DNA of 63,081 nt, the filler included, from Hausera hauseri (Eukaryota): NCBI GenBank assembly GCA_046269625.1. It is 10 parts of 10 records of this genome, joined end to end, with 100 filler letters (N's around TTAATTAATTAA, not from the genome) between each part and the next. Parts side by side here need not be neighbours in the genome. Positions count along the whole stretch, not along the records: positions 24,875 to 34,998 come from JBJURY010234406.1; 9 more parts are not named here. One strand, 5' to 3'. The translations under genes were made by a program, and so were the position numbers. Numbering within the stretch: the first letter of the stretch is position 1; the number at the start of each line of letters is the position of its first letter. Shown piece by piece: positions 17,269-52,262 of the stretch. The notes under the pieces are model-generated. The model saw only the letters and a list, made by a program, of their open reading frames with translations. It was not told the DNA's origin and searched no databases.

Positions 17269-20200
17269 GTGAATCGAATGATAAATGATAAATTCCGCCG
17301 TTATTTCTTGTCACCGCTGCCCACCTCAAACAAAGCCTTACTAACCGTTGTCGACGAGTCCACTGCTATCGAAATACTGGCAATAATGGCTGACAAATAC
17401 TTTGAGATTCTGCATATTAACAGTTCTCTCCCTATTGCGGCTTCAACCACATGTGCTCCAACTACAGACACAACATTTTTACTCAACAATTGCAAATGAT
17501 GCAGTAACAGTTTGAGAAGTTACAGCAGTCGATTTTGGCCATTACTATCTTCTAAATAATCTTCATGGGCCTCGACGAAGTGAAACCAGACCTTTAAGGG
17601 AGAGAAGCATTTCCAGACACACTGCTCGATCCATTTCACCTGGCGGATGCATTACTTGCTTCTATCACACACGATTTCGAAGGGATGCTAGGAAATGCTT
17701 TTTGAGTTGTCCGTTCTACAGCGAACGGTACGCTGTAGACAACCCTATTTGTGTCTACCACAATAAGTTCCAGTCACAGGCTAGATCATGCGTGCCTGAT
17801 TAGAAGCATTACAATGATAAATCTCTTCGCTTTTCTTCCTCTTCTTCCTTTTCTCCAAAACCTTCAAAAAAACTAATAGTGCCGCCAGATTTTTCGGCAC
17901 ATTCTGGCGCAGGCAATATCGCTCAATCTTCTGGCCGTTTCAACACCGCCTCTGCAGTCTTTCTGTTGAAAGCTGTACTGTTATGCAGATATATTTCACA
18001 TATCGACTTCCTTATAGACGCAGGAGCTGCCTTTTTGCTCCTTCCCTTGTCCTTTGTTCCTACATCGATTATGATTTCCTGTCCACCGTTTTTCAATGCC
18101 AGCGGTCAACCGTTGCACTTTACAGGAATCACGGAATTGACTTTCACATTCGCCAACTTGCCAGATAAATTTATATGGAAGTTTCACGTGGCCAACATTA
18201 AATCTCCCATAATAGGCTCAGATTTTCTTGCCGCATATGATCTATTGGTCGATTGAAAATACAGCTGTCTTTTAAGCAGGAACTCGATTGCAACTCCAGA
18301 CATGTGTCTCGTAGACAACTTAGCGAGCAATTCATTGCACTCATCTGTGAACATGTTGAACGCTTCTCCATCTATAAAAAACTTCCGATAAAGTCGGTAA
18401 TATTTCAGTTATGAACGACAATCATAAATCTATTCTCAAACAAAAATCCAAATTAGGCGTCGACAGTAGCGATGCAAGTTGCTTTTCGTCAATCACTGGA
18501 GCTGTTTTTTCTAATGATATACCTCATTCATTCTTGTCTCTAGACTCCAATCTTAAATCATACGTCACAACGCATTGCTTTCGCATAGTTAAAAAGGACG
18601 TCAACTTCAAGCCTCCATCCACAACTTATGATCACATATTAACAGAGCATCAGAAGCCGATCAAACAAAAGGTCAGACTTTTGTCGCCACGCAGACGTAA
18701 AGCTGTGGAACAGGAATTTAATGAACTGGAAAGGTCTGGCATCATTCGGAGATCGAATTCACTGTGGGCTTCTCCTCTTCATGTAGTGGTAAAGAAAGAT
18801 GGTACCTATATGCCATGTGACGACTATCGACAATTAAACAATCTAACTATTACAGATGCCTATTCACTGCCACTCATTAAAGATATTCTTCATAGCCTCA
18901 ACAACACCAATACCTATTCTACCATTGATCTGCACAAGGCCTACAATTAAATTCTTGTTGCCCCTGATGACATTCCAAAAACTGCTGCCATTACACCAGT
19001 TGGACTTTACGAGTATATTTTTATGCCTTTCGGTCTACGTAGTGCATCTCAGACTTTTCAGCGCTACATTGACACCGTTCTTTCTGGTCTTGACTTTGCA
19101 CACCCATACATAGATGACATATTAGTCTCTTCCAGCTCCAGCAAACAACATTATGAGCACCTTAGAATTATTTTCCAAAGAATGCATCAAAGCAACCTGC
19201 AAATTAATTTCGCCAAATGCAATTTCTTCCAGAAATGCGTCAACTTCCTAGGTCACATAATTACTCCCAAAGGTCATTCGCCTCAGCCTGATCGCTTACC
19301 ACAATTGAAAAATGTGACATTACCAATTACCACTACCGACATGAAGAATTTTTTAGAGACACTGCACTTCGTACATAAGTACGTGCCACACTGCTCCGAA
19401 CTAATCGCACCTTTTGCACACCTCTCATCTAAGAAGAAAAGACAACTAATCTATTGAACTCCCGATCTAGTTAATCAATTTGACAGCCTTTATGATGGTT
19501 TGAAATCCGTTTAAATCTTGGCTTTTCCAAAACCGAACGCAAAACCAATATTAACTACCGATGCCTCAACCACAGCCACTGGTGCGATATTACACCAAAT
19601 ATACAACTGTGTTGACGAGTCATTGGAATTTTATTCCCGAAAGCTCACACAACCGGAAAGCCAATACCCAACATTCGATCGTGAACTCCTGGCCATAGTT
19701 TTAGCGGTAAAGCATTTTAAGTATTTGCTCCTATCCCGTCAGTTCGTCATCCAAACTGATTATAAACCTCGATATCTTATCATGACGTTAAAACAGCCAT
19801 CACCCAGGCACGAACGTCAGATATCATATCTGTCGACATTTAGTTTTTCCATGAAATATATTTCTGGCACCGAAAACTTAGTAGCAGATATTCTGTCGCC
19901 GTAAACTCAATTACAGTTCAACCAATTTTTGCCTCTGAAGTCCTAAAAAGTAATCAGTCATCATCTGATATTCTCCAAGTCTTTAAATCGGTTGAGGTCA
20001 TCGATGGCATCGCCTACGACACATCCAACTCGACTAATAAAAAATCATTCTTGCTACATCACTACAAAAGACAACTTTCACGCATTTTCACTCTCTTCAT
20101 CATCCGGGTTCAAAAACCACATTTCGTCTACTGCAACGCCACGTTGTATGGCCAACTATGCGTACAGATGTACAGGTCTGGATCAAGGAATGTGCAGCAT

Positions 20201-20381: not shown

Positions 20382-21426
20382 GAAAAACTGCCTCAAAAGT
20401 TTTTAATAGATCCCTCTGGAAAGGGGAGAATCGAAGAATTTATAAGAAGGAGGCAACGTAAGTCTGTGCATTAAAAAAGTTGGCAGCCAGAGCATACCCT
20501 GACGTTACTACAAGGAATAACGCATTGTTAGCTCACTTCCAGTATGGATTGGAAGAGAAGTTGAGGACAATAATCTCTCAGGCAGATTCTCCTACGTTTC
20601 AAGAGGCCGTAAGGAAGGCGCGAAAAGCCGAACGAGACGCGGAGCTATATAGGTGGAATAAGTCTAAAAGTAGCAGTAGTAACTGCGATAAAAGAAGAAA
20701 CAATAGTACACAAAAGTACCAAAGTTACGACAGAAATAGAAGCCCTTTACAAACGTCAGCCACAGAAGCTGAATCAAACGTAGAAAAAAAGTAAGATTTA
20801 AGTTACGAAACGATGGAGAAAAGTTAAGTTATAAAAAGAAATCCAAAAAGGATGGAAGAGCGTTACCCAACATATAGTCTGAAGGAAGATTGAAATGTTT
20901 CAACTGTAATAAATACGGATACATAGCAAAATCATGCAGATCTCGTAGAGAAGACTCTTCGAAATCCAAGAGTAAACAAAAGAAGAAGGATTACACATCA
21001 GCCATGTCAGATGAATCATACGACAAGGAATATGAAACGGAGGTTAGTGCTAGCGAACATGAAGTTAAGAAAAAGGACAAGAAGAAAGAAAGTATCAATT
21101 ATATAAACGATGTACTATCCCACTGCATGAAGAAACAATTAGAAATCGAACTGAAAGATTTTCAAACACGACAAAGAATACTGAAAGAAAACAGCATTTA
21201 TATGATAGGGGATCAACCAGAGAAAAAGGTATCCCACCAAGGAAGAAAGAAAGGTAATAAGAAAATAATCGACACGGACGTTGGATTAAGAGAAACATCA
21301 ACAGAGCGGGAAGAGGTAGGAAAGAAAAAGAAGAGAGGGCGAAAGAAAAGTAACCTCAATACACCCTCATTAGATCAAGACGATGCTCAAACCACACAAA
21401 TATTTGACAAAGAAATATTAGAATAG
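20382..21426 (+). pseudogene. Gag (capsid C-terminal part and zinc knuckle)
   Basis: HFQYGLEEKLR...TFQEAVRKARKAE; CFNCNKYGYIAKSC (CCHC with H>Y). Confidence 0.85.
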
Positions 21427-21429: not shown

Positions 21430-22618
21430 ATAAAGGATACAGGTATTATAGATCTGGATGAGGAAGACGATATCATTCAAGCAATAAAGACTATCGATCC
21501 CGATAACATAATCGATGTAGATAAAAAAAACCACCACGATACTAAAGATAATCACTAATAAAGAAACAGTAGAAAGGATGGATGAAATTTTGTCTTAATT
21601 AGTGTTATTGGCCCAAGATACCAGCCCGGTGAGGGAAATACCACGAACAATACTGGCCAAGGCCGCTGAAGATGAGAAAGGAGGAAATGAAACCATAAGA
21701 ATAACAGTAAGAGAAGGAAATCGAAATATGAGAGTTATTCGAATGAACGAAATACACGACGTACCAGCTTTATGAGAGAAGATAGAAGAGTTGGAACCAT
21801 TCTATCAAGGAAATCCTTATGAACTGAATTATTACGGAAGAACGTTATATAGTTATGATAAATTATTGAGAATTGGATGTAAAAGTAAGAACTATAATTC
21901 AATAATAATAACCGAAATACATGCAGAGGCGAGAGCTCAAGTAACGATTGATAATATCCTAAGGGAAATGAAACCGCAGGAAGTAGAAGGACCTCTCGTA
22001 GGTGATACGCAAGATGTTACGGTCCAAACAGAGGCTAAGAGACGAGGTAGACCAAAAGGAACAAAGATAAGTGATATTCGTAATAGGAAAGACAGAAATA
22101 AGGAAATGGTGAGACGTCTGTTGTTAGCAGGAACAAACGTTATGCCCGAATCGGTGGACATAGACCCGTTATTAAGAACTCTACTGGCTAAGTTACACAC
22201 ATCATTCGCTTCCTTTGATATGGAAGTAATAAATCCAGATGAACTATTCCAAACATTACATAACAGTATGTTGCGAATAAGTAGGCAATTCTATGACAAT
22301 CTCGACGAAGAACGGATAAACGAATTACACGAATTAGATGTTTTGGAAACGATGTACGCAACAGGGATCACACGGGCGAAAGCACAAACTGCTATATCTT
22401 ACCTATTATATAAAATAATAGTAATCAACCATCAAACTCAAAACTTAGAAGAAATTGAACGAAATATAAAGACAGGCTTCAAAATTCTGAAGGATACGTT
22501 AGGCAACTGGGTCCAATGTAGAGGTGGATGGTTGACTAGCTTAATGACTGACATAACAAGGTTAGAAAAACGTGGAAGACTAGTAGATACGCAAAATGAC
22601 TCAATCAAATACTCCTAG
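21430..22618 (+). pseudogene. Unknown helical domain X with AT-hook-like motif, apparently continuing the gag reading frame
   Basis: ORF 21791-22618 plus upstream decayed frame; KRRGRPKG; conserved in copy B. Confidence 0.7.
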
Positions 22619-24349
22619 ACAATGTGTCGCCGGTATGTCAATCATGGAAATCTTTCAGGTACTTTTAATATCGTCATTATTGATGCCAAGAGCTGTAGGT
22701 ATAGTGGCTTTCGATTGCTCAAAGCCTAGTGAAGGACAGAAGTACTCTTTAGCTGACTTAGAGAAGTGTCCAGAAGCCGACCCAGAACAACTATCAACGA
22801 CAAGTGGACTTACATATTGGATTTATCAAGAGTCTGAATTTATAAAAGTGAAAGTTACGGAATGTTACTTAAAGAAATCATTCTTTCTTTTCAACTGTGC
22901 ATATTCCGGAAATTCTGCCATTATCGAGCCCACAACACATTTTGAACCGATGATAATATCACGAGCAGAATGTCAGGATGCTTTTAAGATCGGCATAATA
23001 ACCATTCATTATGCACACATACCTGCAGTTCGGAACAGAATACAATACACCAGAATTTTTAGAGAAGGAAGAATTGATAAGACGATGGAAGGTACTTTTA
23101 TTGGAGAATATTATGATGCGGGAGGTACTATCGCATCAAGAACGATGGCAATTGAAGACTACCAGGTTCAATTGAAAGAATACGAAGTACTATTTGACTC
23201 ACAAACGAAATTACTGACAACTATGAGTGAATGCGAATACGATAATGGCGAATGCGACACCGGAGAGTCAAAAATGACATGGGAAACATCAGCAAATAAG
23301 TGTCAGTTAACGCTGTTGAAAGAAGGAAGACTTAACAAGACAGTAGGAAAAACGGCTGAGAAAATGGCGATGTATAAAGAATGAACGAAGGAAGTTAAGA
23401 TGACGGAAGTAGCTACAACGTGTATTCGGAACACCCATAGTAAATGATGCGATTTAAAGTCAATGGAGTGATAAATAAATGTAATGAAGAAATATCTAGA
23501 ACTAATTATAAAGGGATTTTTTTGTCATCAAAAGAAATACCTGGTGCTAAGACAAAGATAGATAAAAAGGACATAAAATTAACACAATATTTTAATAATG
23601 AGATTGATTTCTTAATCAACCATGTAAGGAAAGAGATTAGAGGTTTATAGAGAAATAATAATGAACGAGTGTAAATTAAACTATGAAATAATACAATACA
23701 AAATGGCCTTGGTAATTACGAATCTAGATATGGTAGCTCCGGTGATGTCCTTTGGCGATGGAGTAATCGGAGGAGTAATGGGCGAGGTATTAATAACCAT
23801 AGAGTGTAAAAAGATAGAGGTGTCAATTAGACCAACTGAAGAATGTACGGCAAAACTACCCGTAGTTTATCACTGAGAACCAAGGTATGTGATGCATGTG
23901 ACAAGAATATTGTTAGAATCTAACGGTAAGCCGACCTTATTGGAGAACTGCACGTTTAACATGTCACTTATGTTTAAACTGGATCACAAAACATGGATTA
24001 GAATGCCAAAAAGAGAACCGGTATCTAAACCAGCTACATTAAGCGTGATCAACCTGCAAAGAAAGAAGAGATTTGAACCGTTAACAGGAATATCGCAAGG
24101 GGGAATTTATACGCAACAGAATCTAGAAGATTATCGACCAATGTTGCTGTTTCCCCTACAGAGACAGAGTTATAACAGAACTAATCAGGAGAGTAATGTG
24201 GGATGGTGAAGGATCACCATAATGGAAACTGTAATGGGCAAAAATTATTTAAATAAAGTAACAAGGAATATTATGGAGAAAACGTGGGGAAGTTCTTATA
24301 TTTCGGCCAAGCAGCTTCTGGTTTCCTAGCGATATATTTCATTATTAGC
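22596..24349 (+). pseudogene. Chuvirus/herpes gB-like class III fusion glycoprotein (env)
   Basis: Signal peptide then AFDC...YSL...C, IYQ...V.ECY...NC, ISRAECQ, CEYDNGEC, GEVLITIECKKIEV...EECT.KLPV, VTRIL, GIYT, TM FGQAASGFLAIYFII. Confidence 0.85.
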
Positions 24350-24774
24350 AGTAGGGGGAAGGGAGGACACTGCACCAAGCTTATTTTCCTATCTCGAGAC
24401 CCCCCCATCCCCCAGGATCGATAATCAATAATTGTATATGGGGAAGATGAGGAAATCGATATTATCGATTGGTGCGGTCGGGGTTTCACTATTCCCACCC
24501 AAAAAAAATTTTCAAATATCGATTTTTCGAAAATTGTTCGAAAATTTTTTCAAAGGTGAAAAATGTGTATTTTTGAATTCTGTATTTGATGGTATTAATA
24601 GAAAATTTTTTTCGAAAAAATTTTTTTCGAACTCGAATATCTTTTCACCGAGTTTTCGAATAATTTTGGTTGGAAGGTCAAAAATGTTCAGTTTTTTGAG
24701 CTCTTTCGAATGGTATAGGTCGCAAGTCTGTACGACCTTTGGAACCGAATATATATCGATTCGAATATTTCGAA
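24350..24774 (+). repeat. Polinton-type terminus (AGTAG...GAGGACACTG) and subterminal AT-rich repeats
   Basis: Starts abruptly inside the env TM region; shares GAGGACACTG, AGGATCG.TAATCAATA and GGGGTTTCACTATTCCCACCC with 34589-34760. Confidence 0.65.
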
Positions 24775-24997: not shown

Positions 24998-25420
24998 CGC
25001 GCATTTTATAAAACTTGCTAGCCAGCTCCTTATATGTCGTCCTTTCCAGTTTGTACTTTTGAATCACCTCTTCGTGATACACCAAATCACGAACTCCGAT
25101 GATTTGTCGTAACGGACATAAGATGTGTTTTTGCAACATCTCAAGAACTCCGGCTCCGACTACCAACTTATCCGTTAATATGCCAGAAATCTTCTGATAG
25201 AAAACGTTTAAATCCATTTGATTATTGATATTTGACTCCGTTATTCCGGTTATATGTGAATCAAAGTTATTTATTCTTTGTCTTGGCGTTATCATGGTGT
25301 ATAATAACGTGTTACCCTGTAAATCAATGACTGAACATTCCTATGGTGTAAGTTGATTATTCTGGTCGTAGGCCAAGTTCACGGCTGCGACTATGATAAC
25401 TCCATTGCGGACTTGCGATA
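24998..25420 (-). pseudogene. DEDD (REX4/ISG20-like) exonuclease-like domain
   Basis: ECSVIDLQGNTLLYTMITPRQRINNFDSHITGITESNI...KISGILTDKLVVGAG; ExoI acidic residues not evident. Confidence 0.7.
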
Positions 25421-25737: not shown

Positions 25738-27570
25738 TTAAAGAAGAAATAATGTAGCCTTGATTATTTGGACTAGAGCCAATGATCGATTACTTTGGGA
25801 ATATCCCTTAAAATTGTTGCGTATCTGCTGTACCAAAGGAAAGTTATGACTATAGGTGTTGTCGTTTATCACCATGTGATACTGATTTGAAGGATTGGCT
25901 TTGATTAAATAATTTTTGGCATTTTCATACCAATTTTTAATGCGCTGTACTTTGTGCATGTCCACCATCTTGACTGGTACTGTAAAAAAACTGATAAATA
26001 ATGTAACGGTTATCATAATAATTTCGATAATCGTTATTATTTTAGATTTATCATTATTTTTCATGGTAACTGAATAATATTCAGTCATCTTAATTCTTCG
26101 GATTGCATCAACTACAATCCGCTGAAGTTGTTGGCAGCTTGGATTGTCTGTATCCAGGATATTTGGTATACGTCGCATATTTATCCTAACCCAATTTGGT
26201 CTGCGACGTTTTCGTATAAAAGCGATTATCTTTAATGCGAATGCTAACATAATTAATAATATTATGGGACATACAGTACTTATTATTATTAGAATGAATA
26301 TAACTTGCTTTTGGTAGCAGTACACTTTTACTTGAGTTTGTGCTCATTTTCTTATTTTTTACTTTTTGCTGTATTTTGGCTTTTGTCGACGCTGCCAGTA
26401 ATTTCATGGAAATTATCGTATTATCATCCTCGTATAGTTACAGTGTAACCGTATATTTCTTATTGGGATTTAGGTCGGCACACGGTACTATTGTGTCATC
26501 TGGCGTGATTGTGCCTTTTGCTATTATTTTTGACCTAGCTTACAGATGAATTTAATTTTATAGAAATTTAAATCAGGTTGGATAGCTAAGACTAAGGAAG
26601 TGAGCGTGGGAGATATTGTAACATTTTCTAAGACAGAATGTTTTTGACTATAGTGTAAAGCGTGAGGTCGAATAAAAACAGTCATTTCTCCGATGTTTAT
26701 CTTTGTTTTATTAGACAGTAAGGAGTTTGCGAAAGGTGTCGTGACACTTGGATGCTGATCGTAGTGATATTCAATGACATTTTTGAGTGGAACATGTGTT
26801 CTGGGCCCTTGGTGAGTTAAAGTCTTGATGATCTCTGGATCCTTTCATACTAACATAAATTCTAAATCATAGGTTCTTCTTCGTAGGGCATTACAGCAAA
26901 CTTGGAGGTACCTATCGTTTAATTAACATTTTGTCGGTATCCTCTGCTTCTTCTGCACGTCCGTAAGTTTTATACTTATTGCTCTGTTCTATTCAAGCTC
27001 TATCATTGTTCTAATCTCGATGCAATTTCGTCCACTTTTAAAACCTGTCGGCTCTACAGTAAATAGAGTTATTATTATCTCGTCTAATTTGGTTGCATTC
27101 ATTATTCGTCTATTAGGAACCTGTATGATACCTTGGCACTTGGTGTATTGCCACTGATAGCGATTCTTATGTCTTTTGATTAGAGTATAGTATATGAGAT
27201 ATTGGCCAGAGTCATCTACTATACACTCCATTGTGTTCTTCAAATAAGTAAGACCGCAATCATATATTCGTTGTTTCGGACTCCGCTCGTAATCATGCTC
27301 GTGGATTGTTTGAATTCGTATCATATACTGGTTGGGTAACCTGTCAAATATCATGAATCTTATACATTTTTGACCTTTTCTTGTATAAGTTATCTCATGA
27401 TAAATACTTTCCATCAGACTGCTTTCTAACGTTTCGTTTGAAGGGATTGTTTTCATCCATGGATCAAGCGGTTTTGTCGTTTGAGCTAGTAGGCCCGGTA
27501 TCCCTATAAGAACCAGTAGGCAGAGGTATCTGAATACTTCACAATTTGGAGTTTTATTACTTCTCTTTTT
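25738..27570 (-). pseudogene. Post-integrase membrane protein: signal peptide, beta-rich ectodomain with FN3-like repeat, TM helix
   Basis: FRYLCLLVLIGIPGLLA|QTT; LENVTISPTLTSLVL...YKI...DLNPNKKYTVTL; VIFILIIISTVCPIILLIMLAFALKIIAFI-RKRRR. Confidence 0.65.
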
Positions 27571-27573: not shown

Positions 27574-28720
27574 GTCGATGGCTCGTACAAGTTCTTGTTC
27601 ATAGTTTCTTAATTCTTTCTCCTTAGATGCAAGTTTACACCTGTTGACATGTACTTTAATTATAGTGTTATTCTTCTTTAAATATATATTAGGTAGATCC
27701 ACTTTTTCTACTTCATACGGTCCCTTGTATGGTCTATCTAACTTGAATGTTTTACCTTTCTTACAACATCATCTTATCTCCTACTTTAACCGTTGGTTGC
27801 TTGGTATTTTTATCATAATACTTTTGTATTTCAATTTATAATCCTTTTGATTGTTCTTTATTACTTTATACGCTAATTGAAAACATTCCTGCATTAATTG
27901 TTTATATTCTTGTACCGCCATTAACTGAGATATAAGACGCACATTGAAATCCAAATCAATTGGTAATCTAGCATCTCTTAAATACATCATATAAAAAGGT
28001 GTTTCTTTGGTATGTTCATGTACAGACGTTCGATTCACAAAAACACACGCATTAATACACTCATCCCAGTCATCTTGTCTTACATTAACTACCGTTTGTA
28101 GCTTTTCTTTCAGATCTCCTATGTACCTTTCAACCATTCCGTTGTTCTTTGGGTGTCCCGGAGTTGATCGCAATTTCAATATCTTCATAATATCGTATAT
28201 TGCCTGTATTACCTTACCAGTTAAGTCAGATGCTTGGTCTGTTAACACAATTCGAGGAGCTCCATAATTAAATATGATGTTTTCTACAAATTTTTCGGCT
28301 ATCGTTTCAGCTTTCATATCTGGCATGGGTAGTGCAATGACTCATCGGGTGAAATAATCTATAAATACTAAGATATATTTGTTCCCGTTTCTTGTCAATG
28401 GTAAGGGTCCTGTTATATCCATTGCTGTGAATTCAAACGGGGTAGGTGGATTGCCCCATACTTTCAGGTGACCTTTAAATTTGCATCCCGTATTCTTTCT
28501 TGTGGCACAGAGTTTGCAGCTATCACACCAATCTTGGACATCCTTGGCTATGGTTGACCAGAAGTATTTCCTTTTTAGTTTGTTTATCATTTTTCTTACT
28601 CATTGATGTCCACCTAGTAATCCGCCATGATATTGGGTCAATAATACTGCCATATTCCTTTTTGAAATTACTAGTGGGGTCCATTTTCATGATAATATAG
28701 AAATCCATCTTTTTCTTCCT
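27574..28720 (-). pseudogene. Gypsy integrase
   Basis: YFWSTIAKDV...CKLC, MDITGPLP, DYFTR, LTDQAS, NGMVER, KLDRPYKGPY, VHVNRCK. Confidence 0.93.
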
Positions 28721-30200
28721 ACGCATCCCTAAATCGGGTTAAATGACGAGCCAGTTTTCTATCCTTTGGTACAATTTTATTTTGTATATAATTTCTAATG
28801 GCTTTTATTTCTTCATCTTTTCGTTGATTCTCTTTTATCCACTCTACGGATCCATCCATGCTCCATACCGCTGAAATTACTTCTTTCTTTTCTACCTCTT
28901 TCTGTGGCATTCTCGATAAATAATCCACGTTTGCATTTCGTGTGCCTGACTTATACTGAAAATCTAGCGTATAAGGTTGGAGTTTTAAAGCCCATCGTAG
29001 TAATCTACTATTTGGGTTCTCCTGCTTTTTTAGCCATTGCAGTGGTTTATGGTCTGTGTAGATTGTCAATGGTTTATTCTCACTAATATACGGTAAGAAT
29101 ACTTATAAGGCGAATATCACCGCTAATAATTCCTTTTCAACAACGGCATATTTCTTTTGGTGTTTATTTAATTTTCTTGACGTATAAGCAACTGGATGTT
29201 TCTTGTCATCTTCGCCCTTTTGTGATAATACCGCTCCTACTCCATAATCGCTTGCGTCCGTTGCCAGTACGAATGGTTTAGTCATATCTGGATAAGTCAG
29301 GATAGGGGCGTTCAATAATCATTCCTTCAGGTTCTAGAAGGCCTTTTTACACTCACTTGTCCATATTTTCTTTTCTAAATTTTCACGTAATAATTTATAT
29401 AGTGGTTTGGCTATTTTACTAAAATTCTTTACGAATATTCGATAATAATTTGCCAATCCTAAAAATTGGCCTAATTCATTGACAGTAGTGGGTTTTGGGA
29501 AATCTTTAATTTTATTTAATAATCTATCTTGAGGTTTTACACCATACCTATCAACTCGATGTCCGAGAAAATCAACTTCGGTTTGAGCAAATGAACATTT
29601 CTTCGGGTTTATTTTTAAACCCATTACTTCACATTTATCAAAGAGATCTTGTAAGTTCTTCAAATGCTGTTGGAAATTCGAAGATGCTATGATTACTTCA
29701 TCGATATATACCATAGCATGTGGTGCATCTAGAAGTAATAATTCTGTTCCTCTTTGAAAAGTCGGGGGTCCATTTTTTAATCAAAATGGCATTCCATTGA
29801 ATTTCCACAACCCTTCTCCTATTGAGAAGGCCGTTTTCGGCTTATCCTCCGCCTTTACTTCTACTTGCCAATATCCTTTCTGTAGATCAATTGTAGTGAA
29901 TATGGTTGAGCCGTGCAACTTGCGAGTATTTCGTCAATCCTTGGTAGTGGGTACGTGTCTGTTTCCGTTATTTTGTTTAACGCTCTATAATCTACACAGA
30001 ATCTCAGCTCCAACTTTCTTTTTTACCATCACTACTGGAGCCGTCCATGCGAAACAGCTGGGTCGTATTATTTTGTTTTCCCTCATTTCATTCATAAATT
30101 TACTAGCTTCTTCCTTTTTATTATATGCCAGTCTGTATGGTCGTTTTTTTATAGGTTTGTTTTGACCCTCCTTCAACTTGATCGCATGTTATATTACATT
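28719..30200 (-). pseudogene. Gypsy reverse transcriptase and RNase H
   Basis: [54 protein letters not shown]. Confidence 0.95.
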
Positions 30201-30250: not shown

Positions 30251-31198
30251 CTAATTATTCTTTACATAAGATATATTACAATTCTGTAATTTTTCTTTCC
30301 AGTTGAAGTTGGTAGCTTCCTGCTCTTTATTTATATTTACATTTCCTTTCAATTTCTTCTTTATTAATTTGTCGATCTCATCTACTTCTGAGATTACTGA
30401 ATTAATTGCTTCTTTCAATACTTCTTTAACATCTGTTGCTTTCCCAAGTCTCATATTCCTTTTCAACCATTTCTCCTTTGCTGCCGTATTACAAATTCTC
30501 AGATGAATTCTTCCCTTCCTTATCCTGTCTATATGTGGTGCAACAATAATATTATGCTTCTCCATTATTTGTGGAAACGGTTCAAAGTGCACGCAGCTTG
30601 TCAATAATCCATACTCTATTTTACCGGGCATTACTATCTCTGATTGTTGTGGAATTATGACGTCTTTAATTAGTGAAATTGATCCTTCATATTGATATTC
30701 AAACCTTCTTAGTTATCCAGTTTTGACATCTATATACACATTATCCAACTGATATAATACATCACATTCGATTAGTATTTCGTTTGTTAAGTTTTTGGCC
30801 ACACTTATGATATGGCTTATTATTTGGCCACAGATTTTAATTTTTGCATCTAAAACTGTCTTTATCTCTTCCTCCATACCAAATGCTCCCACATTAATCA
30901 ATGTTTTTTCTGGTTTTCGTAATCTACTCACCAACGCCTTGGGTAATTGACTTTCCCCCATTATAGTGGTAGTGGATCCCGTATTTATTGGGGCCGTTAG
31001 CGTGTGTCCGTCTATCTCGATATCTATTTCTGGTTTCAACACCGACTGGGCCTCGTTCTTCTTCTCACTCGTTTTGCACGTAGGCTCACGATCATATGAT
31101 GCGTGTTTTTCTTCGTAATCCTGTTTTAGGCGCAATACTTGATATGTGGGATACATTCCTCCATGTTTTACATATTGAGGGGCTGAAGGACTTAACAT
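30251..31198 (-). pseudogene. Aspartic protease plus PR-RT spacer, preceded in frame by a PSAP-containing segment
   Basis: IEIDGHTLTAPINTGSTTTIM (DTG>NTG) and EILIECDVL (ILGxD motif). Confidence 0.8.
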
Positions 31199-31439
31199 TC
31201 GCTCGTTATATATTTGTCCGTGATATTTACCTGCCTGGTCTAACTGAGGTAAATCAGTAACCAGTTTCCGTTTATACTTCTGTCTTCGTAATTTTAACGA
31301 AAATCTTCTAAGTTTTGTTAAGTATCTGTCACTTCTCTGTTTGATATTTAATCATATTCTTCATCATCATTTTGGTATTTAGAGTACTATATGGCAAATT
31401 TTTCTCAATATCTTTAGTCCTTCCTTTTCATTTTGCATC

Positions 31440-32888
31440 ATGATTTGCTAAAAAACAAGTAAAAACCGCTGGTATTACCGCTATTAAGATTTCCTATGAG
31501 CATCATACTGTTGCATGTATTCCATAAGCCTTAGTGAGTGTAATGAATATTGTTCGTAGAGTACTAATGGTAAAATATATTGCTAAAATCCCTGAGGCAG
31601 CTTGACCAAAATATAAAAATTCGGTGTCTAGTAATATTCTAGTTACTGGTATTACGTACCAAGGATCCATATTATAAACTACTGGTAATTTTGCAGTACA
31701 TTCCTCCGTTGGCCTAATGGCTACTTCTATCTTTCTACACTCAATAGTTATAAACACTTCACCCATCACTCTTCCGATCACCCCATCGCACAATGGCATA
31801 ACTGGAGCTACTATGTCGTTGTTGGTTATTACTAACGCCATCTTATTCCGTATTATTTCATAATTTAATTTACATTCGTTCAGTAAAATTTCCCTATATA
31901 AACTTCTGATCTCTTTACTGACATAATTGATTAGAAAGTCGATTTTATCCTTCTTACCTATTTTTGTTTTAGCTTGAGCTACCTCTTTAGTCGAGAGGTA
32001 TATGCTTTTATAGTTAATTTTAAACATTTCTTCATCACAATTATTAATCGTTCCCACGATTTTAAATCGCATCATCCCTTCGGAGGTTTCTGAATATGCT
32101 ACCGTTGCTACTTCCGTCATCTACACTTCTCTGATTCCTTCTTTATATGTTGTCGATTCTCTTTCGGCTGTTTTTCCTACCGTCTTATTAAATTTCCCTT
32201 CCTTTAATAACGTAAGATGGCACCGATTCGCACCAACTTCCCAAGTCATTTTAGATTCTCCAATATAACATTCTCCGTTATCGTATTCGCATTCATTTAT
32301 AGTTGTCATGAGCCTGGTTTGCGAGTCAAATAGTCCTTCATCTTTTAATTGAACTTGATAATCTTCGATGGCAACTGTTCTTGGCGCGATAGTACCTCCC
32401 ACGTCGTAATCCACTCCTTTCAAAATACCTTCCTTCGTCTTATCTATTCTTCATGCTCGAAAGATTCGAGTATATTTTATTTTACTTCGTACTGTCAGTC
32501 TTTGTGCATTTGGTATCGTTATTAGTCCGATTTTAAAAGTGTCTTGGCATTCGGCTCGTAATATTATTATTGGTTCGAAAGGTGTTGTTGGTTCGATAAT
32601 AGCAGAATTCCCGGAGTAATATGCGCAATTAAATAGAAAGAAGGATTTCTTTTCGTAACATTCTCGAATTTTAACTTTTATAAATTCCGATTCCTGGTAA
32701 ACCCAATACCTATAGCCACTAGTTGTTAGTAATTGTTCTGGGTGCGCTTCGGTACACTTTTCTAGATTAACCAATGAGTACTTCTGTCCTTCTTTAGGCT
32801 TTGAACAATCATATGCCACCACGCCCATGGCCTTAGGCATCTATATGGATTCTATCAGTAGTAACTGTAATATTTTCATGAATGTCAT
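31440..32888 (-). pseudogene. Class III fusion glycoprotein, copy B (internal deletion of about 370 bp)
   Basis: VVAYDCSKP...; GRVMGEVFITIECRKIEV...EECTAKLPV; TM FGQAASGILAIYFTI and EILIAVIPAVFTCFL. Confidence 0.85.
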
Positions 32889-32899: not shown

Positions 32900-33870
32900 C
32901 TTGTTTTGTATAATACTTGGTTATTTCGTGGCTGCTGTTTCATGTGATCCTCCTTCAGGTCTTATTCTACTATTCATTAGACTTGGTATCCATCCACCTC
33001 TACATTGCACTCAGTTTTCCAAAGTATCGCGTAAAATTTTAACTGTTAATTTTATATTTCTTTTGATTTCCTCCAGATTTTGTGTCTATTAATTAATAAC
33101 AATTACTTTATATAATAAATAAGCAACAATTGTTACTTCTTTTTCTCTAGTGATACCTGCCACAAACATCTTTTCCAATATATCTTGTTCCTGTAATTCG
33201 TTAATTCTATGTTCACTGATATTCTCGTAAAATTTTCTGCTAATCCTCAGCATATTGTTATGCAACGTTTGGAACAGTTCATCGGGAATAGACACTTGCA
33301 TATCGAACGATGCAAATGATGTGTGTAATTTTGCTAACAGCGTTCTCAACAATGGGTCTAAATCTATAGCCTCTGGAATCGTATCAGTTCCTGCCAATAA
33401 CAGTCGTCGCACAGTCTCTTCATTCCTATCTCTTTTGTTTCGAATATGGTTTATTTGAGTTCCTTTTAGTCGTATTCTTATTTTAGTCTCAGTTTGTACC
33501 GTAATATCCTGTGTGTCGCTGATTGGTGGCTCCTCTACTTCCGGTGGTTGTAATTCCCTTATTATATTTTCTATCGTTTCCTCGGCTCTTGCGTCGGGGT
33601 GTATTTCGGTTATCGTGATTGGGTTATAATTTTCACTTCTACATCCAATTCGAAAGGAGTTTATCGTAACCATACAATGTTCTTCTATAGAAATTTAATC
33701 CATATACTTTTTCCTTATAAAATGGTTCTAATTCTTCGATTCTTTCTCGCAATGTTAATATATCATCAGTCTTATTCATCCTGATAACTCTTATATCCTG
33801 ATTCCCTTCTTTCAGTGTTATTCTTACAGCTTCATTTCTTCCTTTTTCATCTTCAGCTACTTTAGGCAAG
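32900..33870 (-). pseudogene. Domain X, copy B
   Basis: DPLLRTLLAKLHTSFASFDM is identical to copy A. Confidence 0.75.
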
Positions 33871-34588
33871 AATAATAATGCATACCTTTTAGCTTCAAAT
33901 TCTGAATATTTGGAATATGTAATGTAACATCAATGTTATTTAAAGTTAAAGTATCATCAGTACCTGAGATATCAAAACAAAATATTAAATATAAATTTTT
34001 ATAATTTTTAAAATTTAATGGAGCTTCTACTTTATATTTTTTACATAAATTAACATAAGATTGATTACGTAATATTACATCATTTTTACTTTTATCAAAT
34101 GCATTTCTATTAATTGAATAATAATTATCATTTAATAGAATTTGTAAAGAATATATTTGTTTATTATCTTTATTTTCTTGTATAAATAAAGAAGAATTTT
34201 TATTCAATTTAATTTCGCTACCTTTAAATCCTATAATTACACATATTAGTAAATAAGCTTAATTTGGTAATTTTGTTGAAACATTTAAACCTTGTTTATT
34301 ATGTAAATTAGTACAAATTATTCTTAAATAATCTACGAATATTAGTTTATTAATATTCAATCAATTTATTAATTTTACTTCTGCTTGCCGATTTAATGTT
34401 AATTTTGGTATATGGAATTCTAATTTCTTTAAAGTCAAAGATCCTTTAGTATCTTTATCCCCCAAAAATATTAATTCATTTGCAATTTGTCTATTTAAAG
34501 TTGGTAATATGTGAATACATAATACTCTATTATAATTTTGTAAAAATCCATATAAATATGGTGAAATATTCCTGTAAACTTTAATTTG
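33870..34588 (-). pseudogene. Polinton major capsid protein (double jelly-roll) fragment
   Basis: LYGFLQNYNRVL...LNR, LKKLEFHIPKL, NYKNLYLIFCFDIS; extremely AT-rich. Confidence 0.65.
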
Positions 34589-37197: not shown

Positions 37198-40100
37198 AGT
37201 AGGTAGAAGTGCGGGCTCCACCCAACTTTCCCAAAAGTGCTCAGATCGACCTCGGACCTAGTTTTCCCACCTATGTCACAATTCTGAGCATTTCATGTCT
37301 CGAGGTCAGAGACCCCTTCAGGGAAAGAAGGTCGAGCAATGGACTTTGAACCGAGACCAATCGGTCGAGCCGGATAAGACGAACAAAAGTTATCGGCGCC
37401 GCGGAGCCGGAAAATGTAACCCGGCGGCACAGGAGGTGGAAGAAGAAAAACGGGCAATGTGCAACTGTCAATGCAACACATTTTTATTTGTTTTTAGTTT
37501 AACAATTACTTTAATTTGTTTATCACTCCGAAATGTTCGCAATATCCAATGTATTGCATCTCCCACATACATGATGGTGGATAATGTCACAATGAAATGG
37601 CCAAATATTATTCAGTGGCCGAGGACACGTACCTGTGTCTCGTGTGTTTTATTCAAGACACATTCCCGTACGCCGACTTTTGAGATACACAAGCATCATC
37701 TCGGTCCGTTCACGCGGTCCAAGATGGCTGTGCATTGCCCCACATCCGCGATACTGTAGTAGTAGTAGAGTGCATGACGTTGATGGTTGCCATAGTTTAA
37801 TGGAGCAGTACTATGGCGCCACAACGGTGCACGGTAAACGGGCCTACGTTTGTTCCGGTTGTTCTATAGTTGATGAAATCAACTATGAACAATTTTATAA
37901 CCAGCACAAGGACCACTTAAACCAGTTTCAGAGGTCCAAAACGGATATAGTGATGTCGACAAGAAAAACCAGTATCCCTTCAACAAGTAGAGAACGTCAG
38001 GCCTCAACAAGTCTTGACGAGTGCATCCGAAATAGTACCGAACAGTAGCAGCAGCAGGAGGAACCTTCCATAACTATCAAGTACGATCTAAACAAATCGT
38101 ACGTGGACCTGAAAGTAAACATGTCTTGGACAACAACACTACAGCTGGGGCCTGTTCCGTCAAGTGTGCGCAGCCGGTTGGAATTAGAGGTGGAGAAATT
38201 CAAACTCAACAACTGCAAAGTGGAATATTATTCACTTGCAGAATTTGAAAACGTTGAAGGTGACAGGAATCAAAGGTATATGTCACATCGAGCCGTACCG
38301 TATTAGGAAGATTTTATTGCCGATGTAGGCGAAAAATTGGATGATAAAATCGACAACTACACGGAAAAGGGTAGTGGATGGCGAATTATACGAATTGTCA
38401 CACTCGGCTTTATCATAACAAAGTCGAGTGACGTGGTATACTTGTCTGGACGATCATTCATACCGACACCTGCATCTCTAAAGCAGTCTCTGGTGGTAGT
38501 GAGTGTACAAAATACTGACGACGACGACGAATACTGTTTTCTGTACAGTATACTGGCTGTATTGAAGTACAGCGAAGTGAACAGATATCATGTAATCGTC
38601 GAAATCAGTATCGGCAGTATTTTTCCGAATTGTAATTTGATGAATGCTGCATGCCGATGAAACTGAAAACTATTCCGGCTTTTGAACGGCATAATCCGAC
38701 GCTGTCAATCAACGTTTTCCGGTACAACACAATAGTTGAGATACTGGAAGATGAAGATATTTATAAGAACCGCCATGTGGACATAATTTATCGCAGTTGG
38801 AACCCCATTGGACGCTCGGTAAATTTGTTGCTGTTGGAGCAGGCCGAAAAATTTTATTACGTGACAGTGACAAACCTGGATAGACTGTTGAACATGCAGC
38901 ATGACCAGTTCATCAAAAAGCGAATACGATTCAAGTGGTGTCTTGTATGTCTGCATGGATTCAGATCGGAAACAACGTGGGAAAAACATGTTACGCTATG
39001 CAGACAAAACGGATCAGGGACAACAATGTACGTCATGCCCGTCATAAGGGAACTCAGATTCATTGATTGCTTTTAAACGGACAGTCCGGCATATGTGGTG
39101 TATGCCGATATCAAAGCAATTCTACCACGGCACAATGTATACGACCAAAAGCACGTTCCAATTGCCGTCGGTATGTTGCTAGTACCAATAAAAGCCCCGG
39201 ACAACCGCAGTATTACATTTTTTGTGGTTGGAACTGTGTGCGTAATTTCCTGCTGCAGTCGGAAACCATAGTGGAAACGGAAATTGCGCCGTGTTATTGC
39301 AACAATTGCAATAAGCCATTCATTTTGGCAGACAAATATCAACCGTTGCTTTTCGCAGTCACCGATGAATGCTATATGTGCCACAAAATAATATCGTTTG
39401 ATGCACAAGAACGGCTCCTACCGGATCCCGACCATTTGACCGGTTAATATTTGGGAGCAGCATGTAATTATGCAATTTAGCAAGGCGAGTGCGACCATTC
39501 CTGCCGGTGATCTTTCATAATTTCCGAGGTTATGACTGTCACCATATTCTCAAATGGGCCATTAGCGTCTTTCCGCACTGTGAACTGTCCATAATCCAAA
39601 CGACAATGGAGAAATACCTATCACTGTTGGCACGAGTAAACCGATTCCAGGTACGCTTCCATGATTCATTGCAATCTCTCAATGAATCATTGGCAAAGCT
39701 GGTAAATGCCTTGCCAGATGTGCGAATAGCACTGATACATATTTCCATATGACTTTGCAACATAATATAAGCGACTCCGGACAACAGAGGAATTACTGCC
39801 GACAGGTATCACACAGGATGAATGCCGGAAAGCAGAGGTGTTGGACAAAACTCGGATGTAGAAACATGTTGGATTACATGTTCGTGTATCTTAAACTAGA
39901 CGTGTACTTATTCGCCGATGTGTTCGAAGCATTTCGGGCCGAAGCGCTGGCGGAAGATAGGTTTTATCCACTCAACTTTTATTCCATACCCGGAATAAGT
40001 TTGGCGTCAGCCCTAATGTGACTGGATAGAGACATTCAGCTGCTGCAAGACCAGGAAATTTACCTAATGTTTGATGTTGGTATTCGCGGCGGTCAGTGCT

Positions 40101-41659
40101 ACCAATATCACATCACTGCTGTATATTGATATTAATAACCTGTATGGCTGGGCGCTTTCGCAACCTTTGCCGTAAGGTTAATTCTAATGGGTAGTCGACA
40201 GACAAGATCTGGACGACATAACGTTCCATCTAACACGGGCATACATGGCAGGCTCAGTCGAATACCTGATGGAGGTCAATCTAGTGGTATCAGATGAGCT
40301 GCATGACGTTTGGGCCGATTTACCGGTCACACCATTTAACCAATGTCCGCCAGGCTCAAAAGTGAAGAAACTGCTTATGACGCATGAACCGAAGCTGAAT
40401 TACGTGGTCCATTGGCGTCTGCTACAGTTCTACATGCAGCTCGGTGTACGCATCACACGGCTGCATCGGGCAATCCAATTTGCTCAGGCTACCATGTTGA
40501 AGGCGTACATAGATGGAAATTCGAAGAAACGAGCCGCATCTTGTACAAAGTTCGAAAAGGACTACTACAAGCCGAAAAACAATTCGCTGTACGGAAAAAT
40601 AGTGCAGAATCTGAAAAAACGGCTCAATGTACGCCTATGCAATAGTGAAAAGCGGTCGGTCACATACATGAGTAAGGCGAAGTTTCGATGGTCAATGCAC
40701 ATTGCCAATGGATTGTTTGCTGTGCTGTTAAACAGAGAAGAAATCGTTCTGGACCGGCCAAATGACATCGGACAAGTGGTATTGGACCTGAGCAAGTTGC
40801 GAATGTATGAGCTACAGTATCGCGATTTGGCACGTTATCGGCAAATGTTTGTCGGCTGTGACATTAGTATAATTGCCGGTGATACAGACAGTTTTTTTCT
40901 GCGGCTGAAAAAAACAATCGCGAACAGATACTGCAACAAATGTAGTCAGATGGATTATTGAACACGTCCAACTATCCACTGAATCACTCGTTGTACAGCA
41001 CCGCGATCACCAACAAAATCGGCTACTTCAAGGATGAATGTGAAGGTCGGGTTCAGTATCGGGAATGGATATTTCTACGCTGAAAATTTTATAGCCTTTT
41101 AACTTTCGGCGGACGGGAAATGCGAGCGGACGGAAATAAACCACGGTGATTGTGGCCGTATCTACGAAGAAGAAGAATGACAATCAAAGGCTGCTGTGTC
41201 ACATACGATCATCCGATCGATTGAGCACAGGCTGTATACGGTGACCAATACAAAAGTCGCTTTATGATGCAATGATGATAAGCGTAAGTGAGTGGGGCGA
41301 AATAAGAGTTAGGCGTACGGACATTGACGTTTGGAATAAAACACGCAAGCATGAATGCGATGCAGACAGATAAAATTACTGTAACAATTCATTGTGATCT
41401 GTTTGTTTTGTATAAATAATGTGCATTAATCGTTGTATTTGTCTTTTGTTTTATTATCATTTTGTTTACCTATTTAACTTAATGTGACGAGAAAATATAT
41501 GAAAAACAAACAAAATCCATAAAATTTATTAATCATCATAAGCTAAAATCAAGAAGAACGTAAGTCAAATCAGGATAAAATTTCCCAGCTTTAATATTGG
41601 TGATTTAACGCCGTGCAGTTCCTTGTATCCTTTCAACTTTAATGTTATATAGTCTTTAG
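37198..41659 (+). mobile_element. Polinton/Maverick left end with PolB
   Basis: AGTAGGTAGAAGTG terminus followed within about 350 bp by the PolB coding region. Confidence 0.85.
37550..41339 (+). pseudogene. Protein-primed family B DNA polymerase (group-2 type) with N-terminal Cys/His module and EndoVII/HNH insert
   Basis: GSGW, CFLYSILA, DHLTG.YLGAAC, IFHNFRGYD, YIDINNLYGWALSQPLP, KNNSLYGK, GDTDS, AYGH; many frameshifts. Confidence 0.92.
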
Positions 41660-41759
41660 NNNNNNNNNNNNNNNNNNNNNNNNNNNNNNNNNNNNNNNNN
41701 NNNTTAATTAATTAANNNNNNNNNNNNNNNNNNNNNNNNNNNNNNNNNNNNNNNNNNNN
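41660..41759. other. Artificial contig spacer
   Basis: N44-TTAATTAATTAA-N44. Confidence 0.98.
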
Positions 41760-44277
41760 TCCAGTGACATTAGAGCTGACGCCCAACTCATTCCCGGTAT
41801 GGAATAAAAGTTGAGTGGCTCCAGCCTATCTTCAGCCAACGCTTTTGCTCAAAATGTCTGAAACACATCGGCTAATAAGTACACGTTCAGTTTCAGATAC
41901 TGAAGCATGTACTCCAACATGTTTCTGCAGCTGAGTTCTGTCCAACATCTCTGTGCCTTCCGGTATTCATCCTCTGCAATACCTGTCCATCGCGACGGTA
42001 ATTCCTCTGCTGTTCGGAGTCTCTTATATGATGCTACAAAGTCATACAGGAATATGCCTTTGCTACGTGCAATGCGTGGAAAATTGCGTCAATGTTATCG
42101 GCACATCCGGCAACGCATTTATGAGCTTTGCTAGAGAACATTGAGAAATTGCAATGAATCGAGGAAACGTACTTGGAATCGTTTTATGCGCGCTGACAGG
42201 GACATGTATTTCTCCATTGTTTTTAGGATTACTGACAGTTCTCAATGGGGAAATCCATTAATGGCCAATTTCAGTATATGGTGACAATCATAACCTGGGG
42301 AATTATGAAAGATCACCGATAAGAATGGCCGCACATGCATTGACAAATTGCATGAATTACATGCTGCTCCGAGATATCGACCTGTAAAATGATCGTGATC
42401 CAGTACGAGCCGTTCAAGTGCGTCAAACGGTAATATTTTGTGGCAGAGGTAACATTCATCTGTGACTGCAAACGTCAGGCATTCATCTTCATCTGTCCAC
42501 ATCAAGGGTTTATTGCTCTTTCTACTGTACCATGGTACGATTTCAGTTTCCACTATGGTTTGCAACTGCTACAGGAAATCATGTATACTGTTCCAGCCGT
42601 GAAAGGCGTAATACTGCGGCTGATCGACCGCTTTTATTGGGATAACCAACATACCAACAGCGATTGGAACGTCTTTTTGATAATACACGTTGTGCAGTAG
42701 TAGAATTGCCTCAATATCGGCATATACCACATATGCCGAACTGTCCGTTTTCGACCAGTCACTGAATCGGAGCTCCTTTTTGAGTGGCATGACGTACATG
42801 GTTGTTCCCGTTGAATTCTGCGTGCACAGCGTAACATGTTTCTCCCATGTTGTTTTTGACCTGAATCCATGCAGACATACAGGACACCATTTGCATCGTA
42901 TTCGCTTTTTGATGAACTGGTCATGCTCCAAGTTAAACAGTCTATTCAGATTTGTTATTGTCACGTAATGAAATTTTTCGGATTGCTCCAACAGCAACAA
43001 ATTTACCTAGCGTCCATTCCGGGTCCGACTGCAACAAATTATGTCCACATGGGGTTCTTATAAACTTCTTCGTCTTCCGGTATTTCAGTTATTATGTTGT
43101 ACCGGAAAACGTTGATTGACAGCGTCAGATTACGCCGTTCAAAAGCCGGAATGGTTTTCAGTTTCATCGGCATCCAGCATTCATCAAATTGCAATTCGGA
43201 AAAATACTGTCGATACTGATTTGGACAATTTGCATGATATCTGTTCACTTCGCTGTACTTCAATACAGCCAGAATACTGTACAGAAAACAGTATTCGTTG
43301 TCAGTATTTTGTATATTCACTACCACCAGAGGCTGCTTTAGAGATGCAGGTGTCGGTATGAATGACCATCCAGACAAATATACCACGTCACTTGACCTAG
43401 TTATGGTAAAACCGAGGGTCACAATTCGTATAATTCGCAATTCAGTATCCTTTTCGGTATAGTTGTCGATTTTCTCATCCAACTTTTTGCCTACATCGGC
43501 AATAAAAGCTTCGGAATACGGTACAGCTCGACGTGACAGGTACCATTTTTTCCTCTCACCTTCAACGTTTTCAAATTCTGCAAGTGCATAATATTGCACT
43601 TTGCAGTTGTTGCGTTTGAATTTCTCTACCTATAATTCCAACCGCTGCGCGCACCTGACGGAACATGTCTCAGCTGTAGTGTTGTCCCCGACATGTTTAC
43701 TTTCATGTCCTCGTACGCTTTGTTTAGATCGTACTTGACAGTAATGGAAGAATCGTGCTGTTGCATCTGCTGCTGTTCGGTTCTGTTTCGGATGTATTGG
43801 TCAAGATTTGTTGATGTCTGACATTTTGTGCTTGTTGAGGGGATACTGGTTTTTCTTGACATAATCACTATTTCCTTTTTGGACCGCTGAAACTGGTTCA
43901 AGTTGTCCCTGTGCTGGTTATAAAATTGTTCATAGTTGATTTCATAAACTATCGAACAACCGAGACAAACGTAGGCCTGTTTACCGTGCACCGTTGTGGC
44001 GCTATAGTACTGCTCAATTACACTGGCAACCATCAACGTCATGCACTCTACTACTACAGTATCGCGGGTATGTGGGGCAATGCACAACCATCATCTTAGA
44101 CCGCGTAAACGGCCCAAGATGATATTTGTGCATCGCATAAAAGTCGGGGTATGGACAAGGGGCCGAAATACTACCACACGTTGGGCACAAATATGAGTCC
44201 GTGCCAACGGTGTAATATTTAGCTATCTGCTGATGGCACTGCTCCTTTTCCACACGTATGCGCGAGACGCAATACAT
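41760..44277 (-). pseudogene. Second Polinton pPolB copy (N-terminal half)
   Basis: Collinear with 37550-40030; VYADIE, DHDHFTGRYLGAACNSCNL, IFHNSPGYD. Confidence 0.92.
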
Positions 44278-44463
44278 GGGATAATTAGTACACTTCTGAT
44301 TGGAAATTAAAATAAAATAAATGTTTCATATTAAGTTATATATACTATAAATTGAAATATGACAACTTATTTGTCGGTCTTGAGAAAAAAGTGAAGTCTC
44401 CTTACTCCCTTATAAAGAAGTATTCTAAACGCTACAACAACAACAACAACAACTATAAATCAC

Positions 44464-44724
44464 ATGGAACAGTACATTGAAAGCGAGATTAAGAAATTGG
44501 CCGATGACATTTTGACTGGACATGTGTTTAATCTTCAGTTTTTGTATGAGCTCGCAGAAACCAGAATAATTAGTCGACGGGAATATATTGAATTATTTGT
44601 CAGATCTCTATTGGTACAACGTATCAAAGATAAAATGAGACGAAAACAGCAACAACAACGACGGATTAATTTCCTCATTGGACTTGTTTTTACTGCTTCG
44701 CTTTGTATTGTAATTAAAAATTGA
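44464..44724 (+). CDS. Small hypothetical protein with C-terminal hydrophobic anchor
   Basis: 86-aa ATG ORF; TATAAA motifs upstream; tail RRINFLIGLVFTASLCIVI. Confidence 0.45.
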   Translation: MEQYIESEIKKLADDILTGHVFNLQFLYELAETRIISRREYIELFVRSLLVQRIKDKMRRKQQQQRRINFLIGLVFTASLCIVIKN

Positions 44725-45399
44725 TTGGCCGTATTTAATCATACATTTGTACATATTTTGTTGCGTTTGATTTCGTGAATATAATTTATTTCGCGTGTCT
44801 TTGTTGTTGTTTTTTACATTTCAGTATAAATACTTGTGCTTCGTTACGGTATGACATTACGACATGTCCCATTTATCAAAACTCATTCGTTAGTATCACT
44901 CCTTCGAAAGTTTCCGTAGTCACCTTTACAATCTTGATCGACCTTTACATGATGCACGATACTGATCTCCCGAAGAGATACTCCGGCGTGCTGAGGAGAA
45001 TTGGAGGGCACGGGAACCTTATCTACGACGTATGAATTAGGTTGTTGGTGACATGGACATGATATTCGGTCAGATTTTTTGCATATGGCAGAAATTGGCG
45101 GATACTTATGCACTATGCCAACAGTCCACGCCAAATGCAGTTTGTGGATGATTTTGTCCAAAGCGACCAGATGATGGTGGATTACATTCCCATGTGGCAG
45201 TCGGCGGATCAGATTTGCTTTAAGCAACATTTGAATGTAACTAATTCTAATGGACTCGTTCATTCTCCTACGGAATTGATTAACCCACGTGGTTTGTGTA
45301 CTCCTAGCATTCATTAGAAAAGATTTAATTGTTGTTGTTGTACGAAAAAAGGGAAATAAATGTTCGATTCAGACTTGACTTAGCAACAGGTGTGGTCCG

Positions 45400-45615
45400 A
45401 CCAAATACTAGGTTACCGAAAAATTAAAATAATCCTTATAGTCAGATAGGTGGGAAAATATGGTTGTCCAAAACTAGATCAAAAATTTTTTTCAAATGTT
45501 TGTTATAGTCAGATAGATGGGGAAATGCAGATGTCCGAAACAGGGTTAGTCCAAAATTTTTCCGACTCAACTCATTGCGGTGAGTCCGAATATGCAGGTG
45601 TCCGAAACTGGGTCA
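45400..45615. repeat. Degenerate tandem repeats (TATAGTCAGATAG.TGGG.AAAT...GTCC.AAAC)
   Basis: Two or three imperfect units of about 65-70 bp; probably subterminal to the element. Confidence 0.55.
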
Positions 45616-46236: not shown

Positions 46237-46336
46237 NNNNNNNNNNNNNNNNNNNNNNNNNNNNNNNNNNNNNNNNNNNNTTAATTAATTAANNNNNNNN
46301 NNNNNNNNNNNNNNNNNNNNNNNNNNNNNNNNNNNN
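46237..46336. other. Artificial contig spacer
   Basis: N44-TTAATTAATTAA-N44. Confidence 0.98.
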
Positions 46337-52255: not shown

Positions 52256-52262
52256 TAGCAAC

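Follow-up and report, generated by a model that had tools for sequence, protein, structure and literature searches.

The window, by which I mean the whole 63,081-nucleotide stretch of Hausera hauseri DNA that was analysed (assembly GCA_046269625.1), consists of several contigs strung together via N-TTAATTAATTAA-N linkers, and two of these contigs bear pieces of a single LTR-retrotransposon family (Table 1). The plus copy, named for its strand, carries the end of gag, a region that I call X, and an envelope gene (env); the minus copy carries X, env, an env tail, pol and extra regions. When gag-X-env of the plus copy is joined with X-env-pol of the minus copy, env falls between gag and pol. The order within Pol is protease, reverse transcriptase (RT), RNase H and integrase, as in Ty3/gypsy elements (Metaviridae), both by Pfam matches and by motifs, among them a GPY motif at 27723. 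The match to PF24664 makes the envelope protein a class III (gB-type) fusion protein; no solved structure matched it by sequence. Judged from these assignments, both copies are decayed remains of a Ty3/gypsy element whose env, of the class III fusion type, is placed between gag and pol.

Table 1. Features of the two copies; positions count along the whole window, KD denotes hydropathy and E the E-value of a match.
Feature	Position	Strand	Evidence or remark
Plus copy	20382 to about 24350	+	Gag end, X, env
Gag C-terminal part, plus copy	20396..20937	+	label by eye; no Pfam match; start off contig
Degenerate zinc knuckle, Gag end	20896-20937	+	
A8 run	21523..21530	+	near it the reading leaves the Gag frame for that of X (+1)
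Likely ubiquitin-like domain, X first half	21671..21916	+	weak RAD23A matches
Likely BCL-2-like domain, X second half	22103..22555	+	BH1/BH2-like motifs; sub-threshold matches
Class III fusion-type env, plus copy	22635..24350	+	PF24664 E 1.1e-20 and 6.4e-26; hydropathy
Minus copy	about 33860 to 25000	-	X, env with its tail, Pol, then the extra regions
Counterpart of ubiquitin-like domain, minus copy	about 33851-33600	-	
Counterpart of BCL-2-like domain, minus copy	33421-32980	-	
Minus-copy env: signal sequence, ectodomain	31620..32888	-	PF24664 E 5e-35
First C-terminal hydrophobic segment	31540..31619	-	either TM or membrane-proximal region; KD reaches 1.66, partly amphipathic
Second hydrophobic segment	31446..31502	-	KD 2.05; then basic residues, stop at 31430
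Env tail / linker to protease	31037..31445	-	interrupted in minus copy by one stop and a net change of frame
PSAP, candidate Tsg101-binding late domain	31178..31189	-	
MYPTY motif	31142..31156	-	not canonical YPX(1-3)L
Retropepsin	30746..31036	-	Pfam E 2.4e-5; active-site motif degenerate
Protease-RT spacer, about 170 codons	30254..30712	-	open frame; place of Burro dUTPase-like region, likeness by eye
RT and RNase H, decayed	28970..30188	-	RVT_1 E 1.8e-12, RT_RNaseH E 2.2e-10
Integrase: zinc finger, core, GPY motif	27650..28650	-	Integrase_H2C2 E 6.5e-17, rve E 0.0017
Second membrane-protein-like region	26239..27570	-	signal-like segment 27543, beta-rich part, TM 26295
DEDD exonuclease-like piece, element 3' end, behind second membrane-protein region	25000..25409	-	PolC exonuclease E 0.0053, ISG20 E 0.07, NCBIfam E 8.7e-4

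The two copies are 71% identical over 2273 alignment columns, and their mismatches are enriched at third codon positions, which argues for divergence during the active period of the family and for later decay. That decay has left 26 stops in the 2580 codons of the minus copy. Contig depth in run X1 reaches thousands over most of the element, versus about 30 for exact-match pieces; this is consistent with a high-copy family, although depth is not the same as copy number. No LTR pair was found among the repeats listed in the window, both copies being cut by contig ends or by other repeats. At its 5' break the minus copy adjoins an unrelated AT-rich frame (33857-34400, minus strand), which has no Pfam match and low run X1 depth.

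Neither env is complete. In the plus copy a signal sequence and ectodomain are followed by a cut inside the first hydrophobic segment, which leaves the window with a single copy of the env tail. In the minus copy the PF24664 match stops at position 421 of the 653 in the profile, and about 120 ectodomain codons are missing near 31625, just ahead of the hydrophobic segments.

Gag, X and the start of env

The initial annotation held that Gag runs into X with only scattered stops and a shift at an A-run, and this description was sound. Counting as a break any stop or frame change, and taking the fewest possible for each stretch, I found three breaks in the 760 nt from Gag to X of the plus copy, where shuffled sequence has 9.9 and none of 300 shuffles is as unbroken; the change of frame lies near a run of eight A's. 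The Gag-to-X stretch is coding-like. About 250 codons separate the zinc knuckle from the ubiquitin-like domain, and they have no Pfam match; the available part of Gag, from which the start is missing, contains no P(S/T)AP. A programmed -1 frameshift at gag/X was considered and is unsupported, as X lies at +1 relative to the Gag frame, to which the heptamer at 21525 belongs.

X itself is likely a ubiquitin-like domain followed by a BCL-2-like domain; the matches that point to this are all sub-significant and mutually dependent, yet concordant. For the first half, RAD23A chains make up four of the 11 PDB matches (best E 0.14) and are aligned at the RAD23A N-terminus, the site of its own ubiquitin-like domain. 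The single plus-copy ubiquitin-like piece searched alone gave no match. The second half matches Pfam Bcl-2 at E 0.012. BOK (E 0.097) and a Bak protein are the best two of its three PDB matches, with BH1- and BH2-like motifs aligned, and all nine profile matches are to BAX or BOK. Foldseek with a model of the BCL-2-like domain returned BCL-2 family members in each of its top 10 rows, none of them significant; the AlphaFold model is poor (pLDDT 42) and these ranks serve as a consistency check only. The ESM Atlas held nothing for the BCL-2-like part.

The passage from X into env is more equivocal. As had been noted at the outset, the X/env frame offset differs between the copies: the plus copy has +1, the minus copy -1. 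Continuity across the junction is non-significant (P 0.41 and 0.13), there is no slippery heptamer at X/env, and a Met stands ahead of the env signal sequence in both copies (GMxxM). The opposite offsets lie within about 115 nt, so that a fused ancestor would need two independent lesions. The offsets, the Met and the lack of significant continuity are what one would expect if the element had two ORFs, one for Gag-UBL-BCL2 and another for env-tail-Pol that began at its own Met and was expressed by splicing, leaky scanning or re-initiation, with Pol still tethered through env: copies that diverged under selection, as their third-position bias attests, have different offsets yet retain GMxxM. However, the stops in the X frame occupy non-homologous places in the two copies, X and env are in register in one X1 contig (depth 43.8 of 61.6), and in Burro the BCL2-like domain and env share a single ORF according to PMC6431247. 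I consider the two-ORF arrangement unlikely, and by analogy with Burro it is moderately probable that Gag and X were in frame with env.

From env into the protease

The initial annotation also had the decayed env frame running on past the transmembrane (TM) segments and into the protease. In the minus copy it does not: the env hydrophobic segments and the PSAP-protease region lie in different frames with a stop between them, the env-frame stop at 31430 comes five codons past the second hydrophobic segment, and stops interrupt all three frames from 31505 to 31352. The placement of PSAP and MYPTY in the open frame of the protease was correct, since one stop-to-stop ORF of 212 aa (31351-30713, minus strand) contains both motifs and the retropepsin. 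The Pfam matches of the latter, to Asp_protease (E 2.4e-5) and RVP (E 5.8e-4), both fall just short of the curated cut-offs.

Despite the interruptions in this copy, the stretch between TM and protease resembles decayed coding sequence. From the TM end to the protease core there are two breaks in 472 nt, versus 7.2 +/- 1.4 in 300 dinucleotide shuffles (P=0.003), and among overlapping control stretches from elsewhere in the window 1 of 98 is equally unbroken (mean 5.8). The break rate of the link is 1.3 per 100 codons, compared with 0.7 for env, 1.6 for RT-RNase H and 1.0 for integrase. Variation within the family was read from 36 rows of a family-site table, drawn from 40 of 76 after four rows in the frame-change stretch had been dropped; the rows were split with 0.92 as the dividing X1 share, a value chosen once the table had been viewed, and codon positions follow the env frame over the TM stretch and the protease frame over the PSAP stretch. 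Among the rows listed, 12 of 19 family-variable sites are at third positions (p=0.007) versus 1 of 17 near-fixed differences, which are likely private to the minus copy.

Contigs from other runs bear on the stop itself. Record 11 of X2 spans 31205-31427, and its length differences bring both frames into register. Its alignment and that of X1 record 7 both end at 31427, beside the stop codon at 31430, which suggests that this stop is absent from both contigs and leaves the TM link unbridged. No listed contig piece spans the TM-to-protease stretch, and none of the copies covered has an uninterrupted frame from env to the protease.

If, instead, env ended at a genuine stop behind the TM, with the tail, PSAP, protease and the rest of Pol reached by readthrough, by frameshift or from a separate start, then env would be made in excess of Pol, whose N-terminus would include the PSAP. 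The stop at 31430 and the net frame change in the minus copy are as this would have them, no contig among the rows listed surely bridges the stop, and a slippery-type T-rich heptamer is present in the env frame at 31455. But the -1 frame into which that heptamer leads is shut by four stops, the heptamer varies among contigs, and most of the contig depth differs from the minus copy within it. Moreover, one stop per 100 codons is background for this element, identity breaks off right at this stop in two contigs, each from a different run, and one contig is in register downstream. A genuine env stop is improbable. That env, tail and Pol once shared one frame is, I think, very probable, and this is supported by the coding-like continuity, the third-position variation, the X2 contig in register and the layout of Burro.

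As to the single polyprotein that had been proposed, then, its env tail-Pol part is supported, and its Gag-X-env part is plausible, although both copies are out of frame there. Taken whole, the reading that I favour is a compact Burro-like element in which Gag-UBL-BCL2-env-tail-Pol would be one polyprotein, and I regard it as fairly probable.

Relatives and the regions flanking RT and integrase

Burro and GYPSM1 are planarian gypsy-like LTR retrotransposons, presented in PMC6431247 as the first whose env stands in frame with the gag and pol on either side of it. By that account, Burro encodes Gag, a ubiquitin/SUMO-like domain, a BCL2-like domain, env, protease, a dUTPase-like region, RT, RNase H and integrase in one ORF of 4,873 aa. 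Compared by this published description, and with X read as proposed above, Burro and the window element have their order in common, including the zinc knuckle and a mononegavirus-fusion-like env (PMC6431247), and in both a BCL2-like domain stands directly ahead of env, with the caveat that the window matches are sub-threshold. Where Burro has its dUTPase-like region the window element has the protease-RT spacer, which has no family match in profile searches. The differences are also considerable: Burro has MATH, BIR and ankyrin cargo, whereas the window element is compact ahead of the ubiquitin-like domain, with no room seen for such cargo in the part present. Furthermore, the window element is decayed, and its second membrane-protein region, its DEDD piece and its env-tail PSAP go unmentioned for Burro in the available parts of PMC6431247. 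Lacking giant size and cargo, the element is Burro-like and I have not filed it as Burro. The layout and the BCL-2 module are already in print, and what the minus and plus copies mostly add is a divergent compact relative.

Env ahead of pol has also been reported in nematodes, where the endogenous retroviruses of Sacco et al. (2022) are said to have a continuous gag-env-pro-pol ORF and a nyamivirus-like glycoprotein. On that description they resemble the window element in having env before pol and differ in having nematode hosts; they are not known to have a UBL/BCL-2 module.

Chary and Hayashi describe GAG-ENV-POL errantiviruses with an HSV/gB-type env from Platyhelminthes, Nematoda and Bryozoa (PMC13524379), which have the same gene order as the window element. 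By eye, the window env shares motifs of domain I-II and the cysteine spacing with Smed_errantivirus_1-6 (C1a) of that paper, and this likeness makes a flatworm host likely for the family. Those elements are intact, the window copies are decayed, and ORF fusion is not discussed in the portion of that text available. Anakin elements of mosquitoes (PMC7642597) likewise represent the capture of a related class III glycoprotein, from chuviruses, by an LTR element, but they are BEL/Pao and not Ty3/gypsy. Troyka was considered as a relative and rejected, as it is without env in the available text of PMC12440569. Searches for intact relatives found none in a set of 5.8 billion proteins, nor among viral contigs and metagenome contigs, and the tail-protease ORF had no relative among 1.84 billion representatives; such blanks are weak evidence.

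Behind the integrase, the initial annotation had placed a fibronectin type III (FN3) domain with its own signal peptide and TM. No Pfam or NCBIfam match bears out the FN3, and the AlphaFold model of the post-integrase region is poor (pLDDT 32). The integrase and the second membrane-protein-like region do share a frame, which is split by a single stop at 27573, and there is no in-frame ATG ahead of the signal-like segment of the second region; continuity between the two has a P of 0.15. Whether the integrase was fused to this second protein is, on these figures, evenly balanced. The first domain of the region (26992-27570, minus strand) has an ESM Atlas score of 0.89 to lipocalin-like clusters, which is a lead only. 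Past the TM at 26295 there are two further hydrophobic segments (26040 and 25785), within 25741-26343 on the minus strand, so that the post-integrase region may be multi-pass or comprise more than one protein.

Membrane topology and a candidate late domain

How might such a polyprotein thread the membrane? The hydrophobic segment behind the BCL-2-like domain has the position of a BCL-2 tail anchor, and it would serve the polyprotein as an internal signal anchor. Gag-UBL-BCL2 would then remain cytosolic and env would enter the ER, where signal peptidase would release the env N-terminus. A single true TM would send the chain back to the cytosol, and the first hydrophobic segment would rest on the membrane, much like the membrane-proximal region of herpesvirus gB. 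The tail with its PSAP, and protease-RT-RNase H-integrase after it, would hang off env until cut by the retropepsin, and Pol would be brought to the budding site via env. At that site, or in the sorting of env into multivesicular bodies, PSAP would bind Tsg101 (ESCRT-I).

The topological consistency claimed for the polyprotein at first is conditional. Since two hydrophobic segments end env, Pol would be luminal if both crossed; judging by hydropathy, a cytosolic Pol is inferred to require that only one C-terminal segment cross the membrane and that the other stay uncrossed.

P(S/T)AP is the consensus of one class of ESCRT late domain, and PSAP satisfies it. Of the two late-domain motifs originally put forward, this one stands and MYPTY does not, as neither the YPxL nor the YPX(1-3)L pattern matches at 31153. 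The chance of a P[ST]AP is 0.085% in shuffles of the 105 residues ahead of the protease and about 3% across the whole element of 3300 aa, and the six frames of the window contain three. Among the rows listed, two family differences fall inside PSAP, both at third codon positions. Could the layout be right and PSAP be an incidental part of a proline-rich linker with no ESCRT role? The figure for the whole element, the failure of the companion MYPTY, and the presence of another PSAP in the low-complexity ORF of an unrelated element (15605) would all be in keeping with that, whereas the much lower figure for its own 105 residues, the confinement of both differences to third positions and the predicted cytosolic side of the motif speak against it. 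I hold an incidental PSAP to be plausible, if somewhat short of probable, and a functional PSAP to have about an even chance.

As a candidate late domain, the PSAP in the env tail is possibly a new point, as paper searches, at the level of titles and abstract openings, brought up no description of a PSAP in the env tail of such a retrotransposon. Its position between the env TM and the protease makes env-driven budding directly testable, which would matter if the tail motif is real. The portions of the literature covered do not address budding or Pol packaging by elements with env inside the polyprotein. More tentatively, and with doubt prevailing, Gag and Env may have swapped roles in flatworm-type elements: the env tail would supply both an ESCRT late domain and the delivery of Pol, Gag would be kept at the membrane by a BCL-2 tail anchor, which would also be the env signal, and a second surface protein fused behind the integrase would give a reverse-transcribing virus with the build of a flavivirus polyprotein.

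The other PSAP, at 15605, belongs to a gypsy-type element at 15156-17133 (minus strand), where it lies in a Ser/Pro-rich frame behind the integrase, and a further gypsy-type element occupies 18378-19904 (plus strand). Near a gypsy element there is also a piece of a proteasome non-ATPase subunit (13975-14532, minus strand; PF10508, E 2.7e-12). An intron-free frame of 945 aa at 643-3480 (plus strand) matches human TAF2 at E 2e-17 and is strongly divergent. Three related copies of another repeat fill 37200-47300. A match to protein-primed DNA polymerase B at 40188-40958 (E 1.6e-4) is possibly Maverick/Polinton-like. Finally, 48300-52450 is about 4 kb of a simple 8/12-nt tandem repeat.
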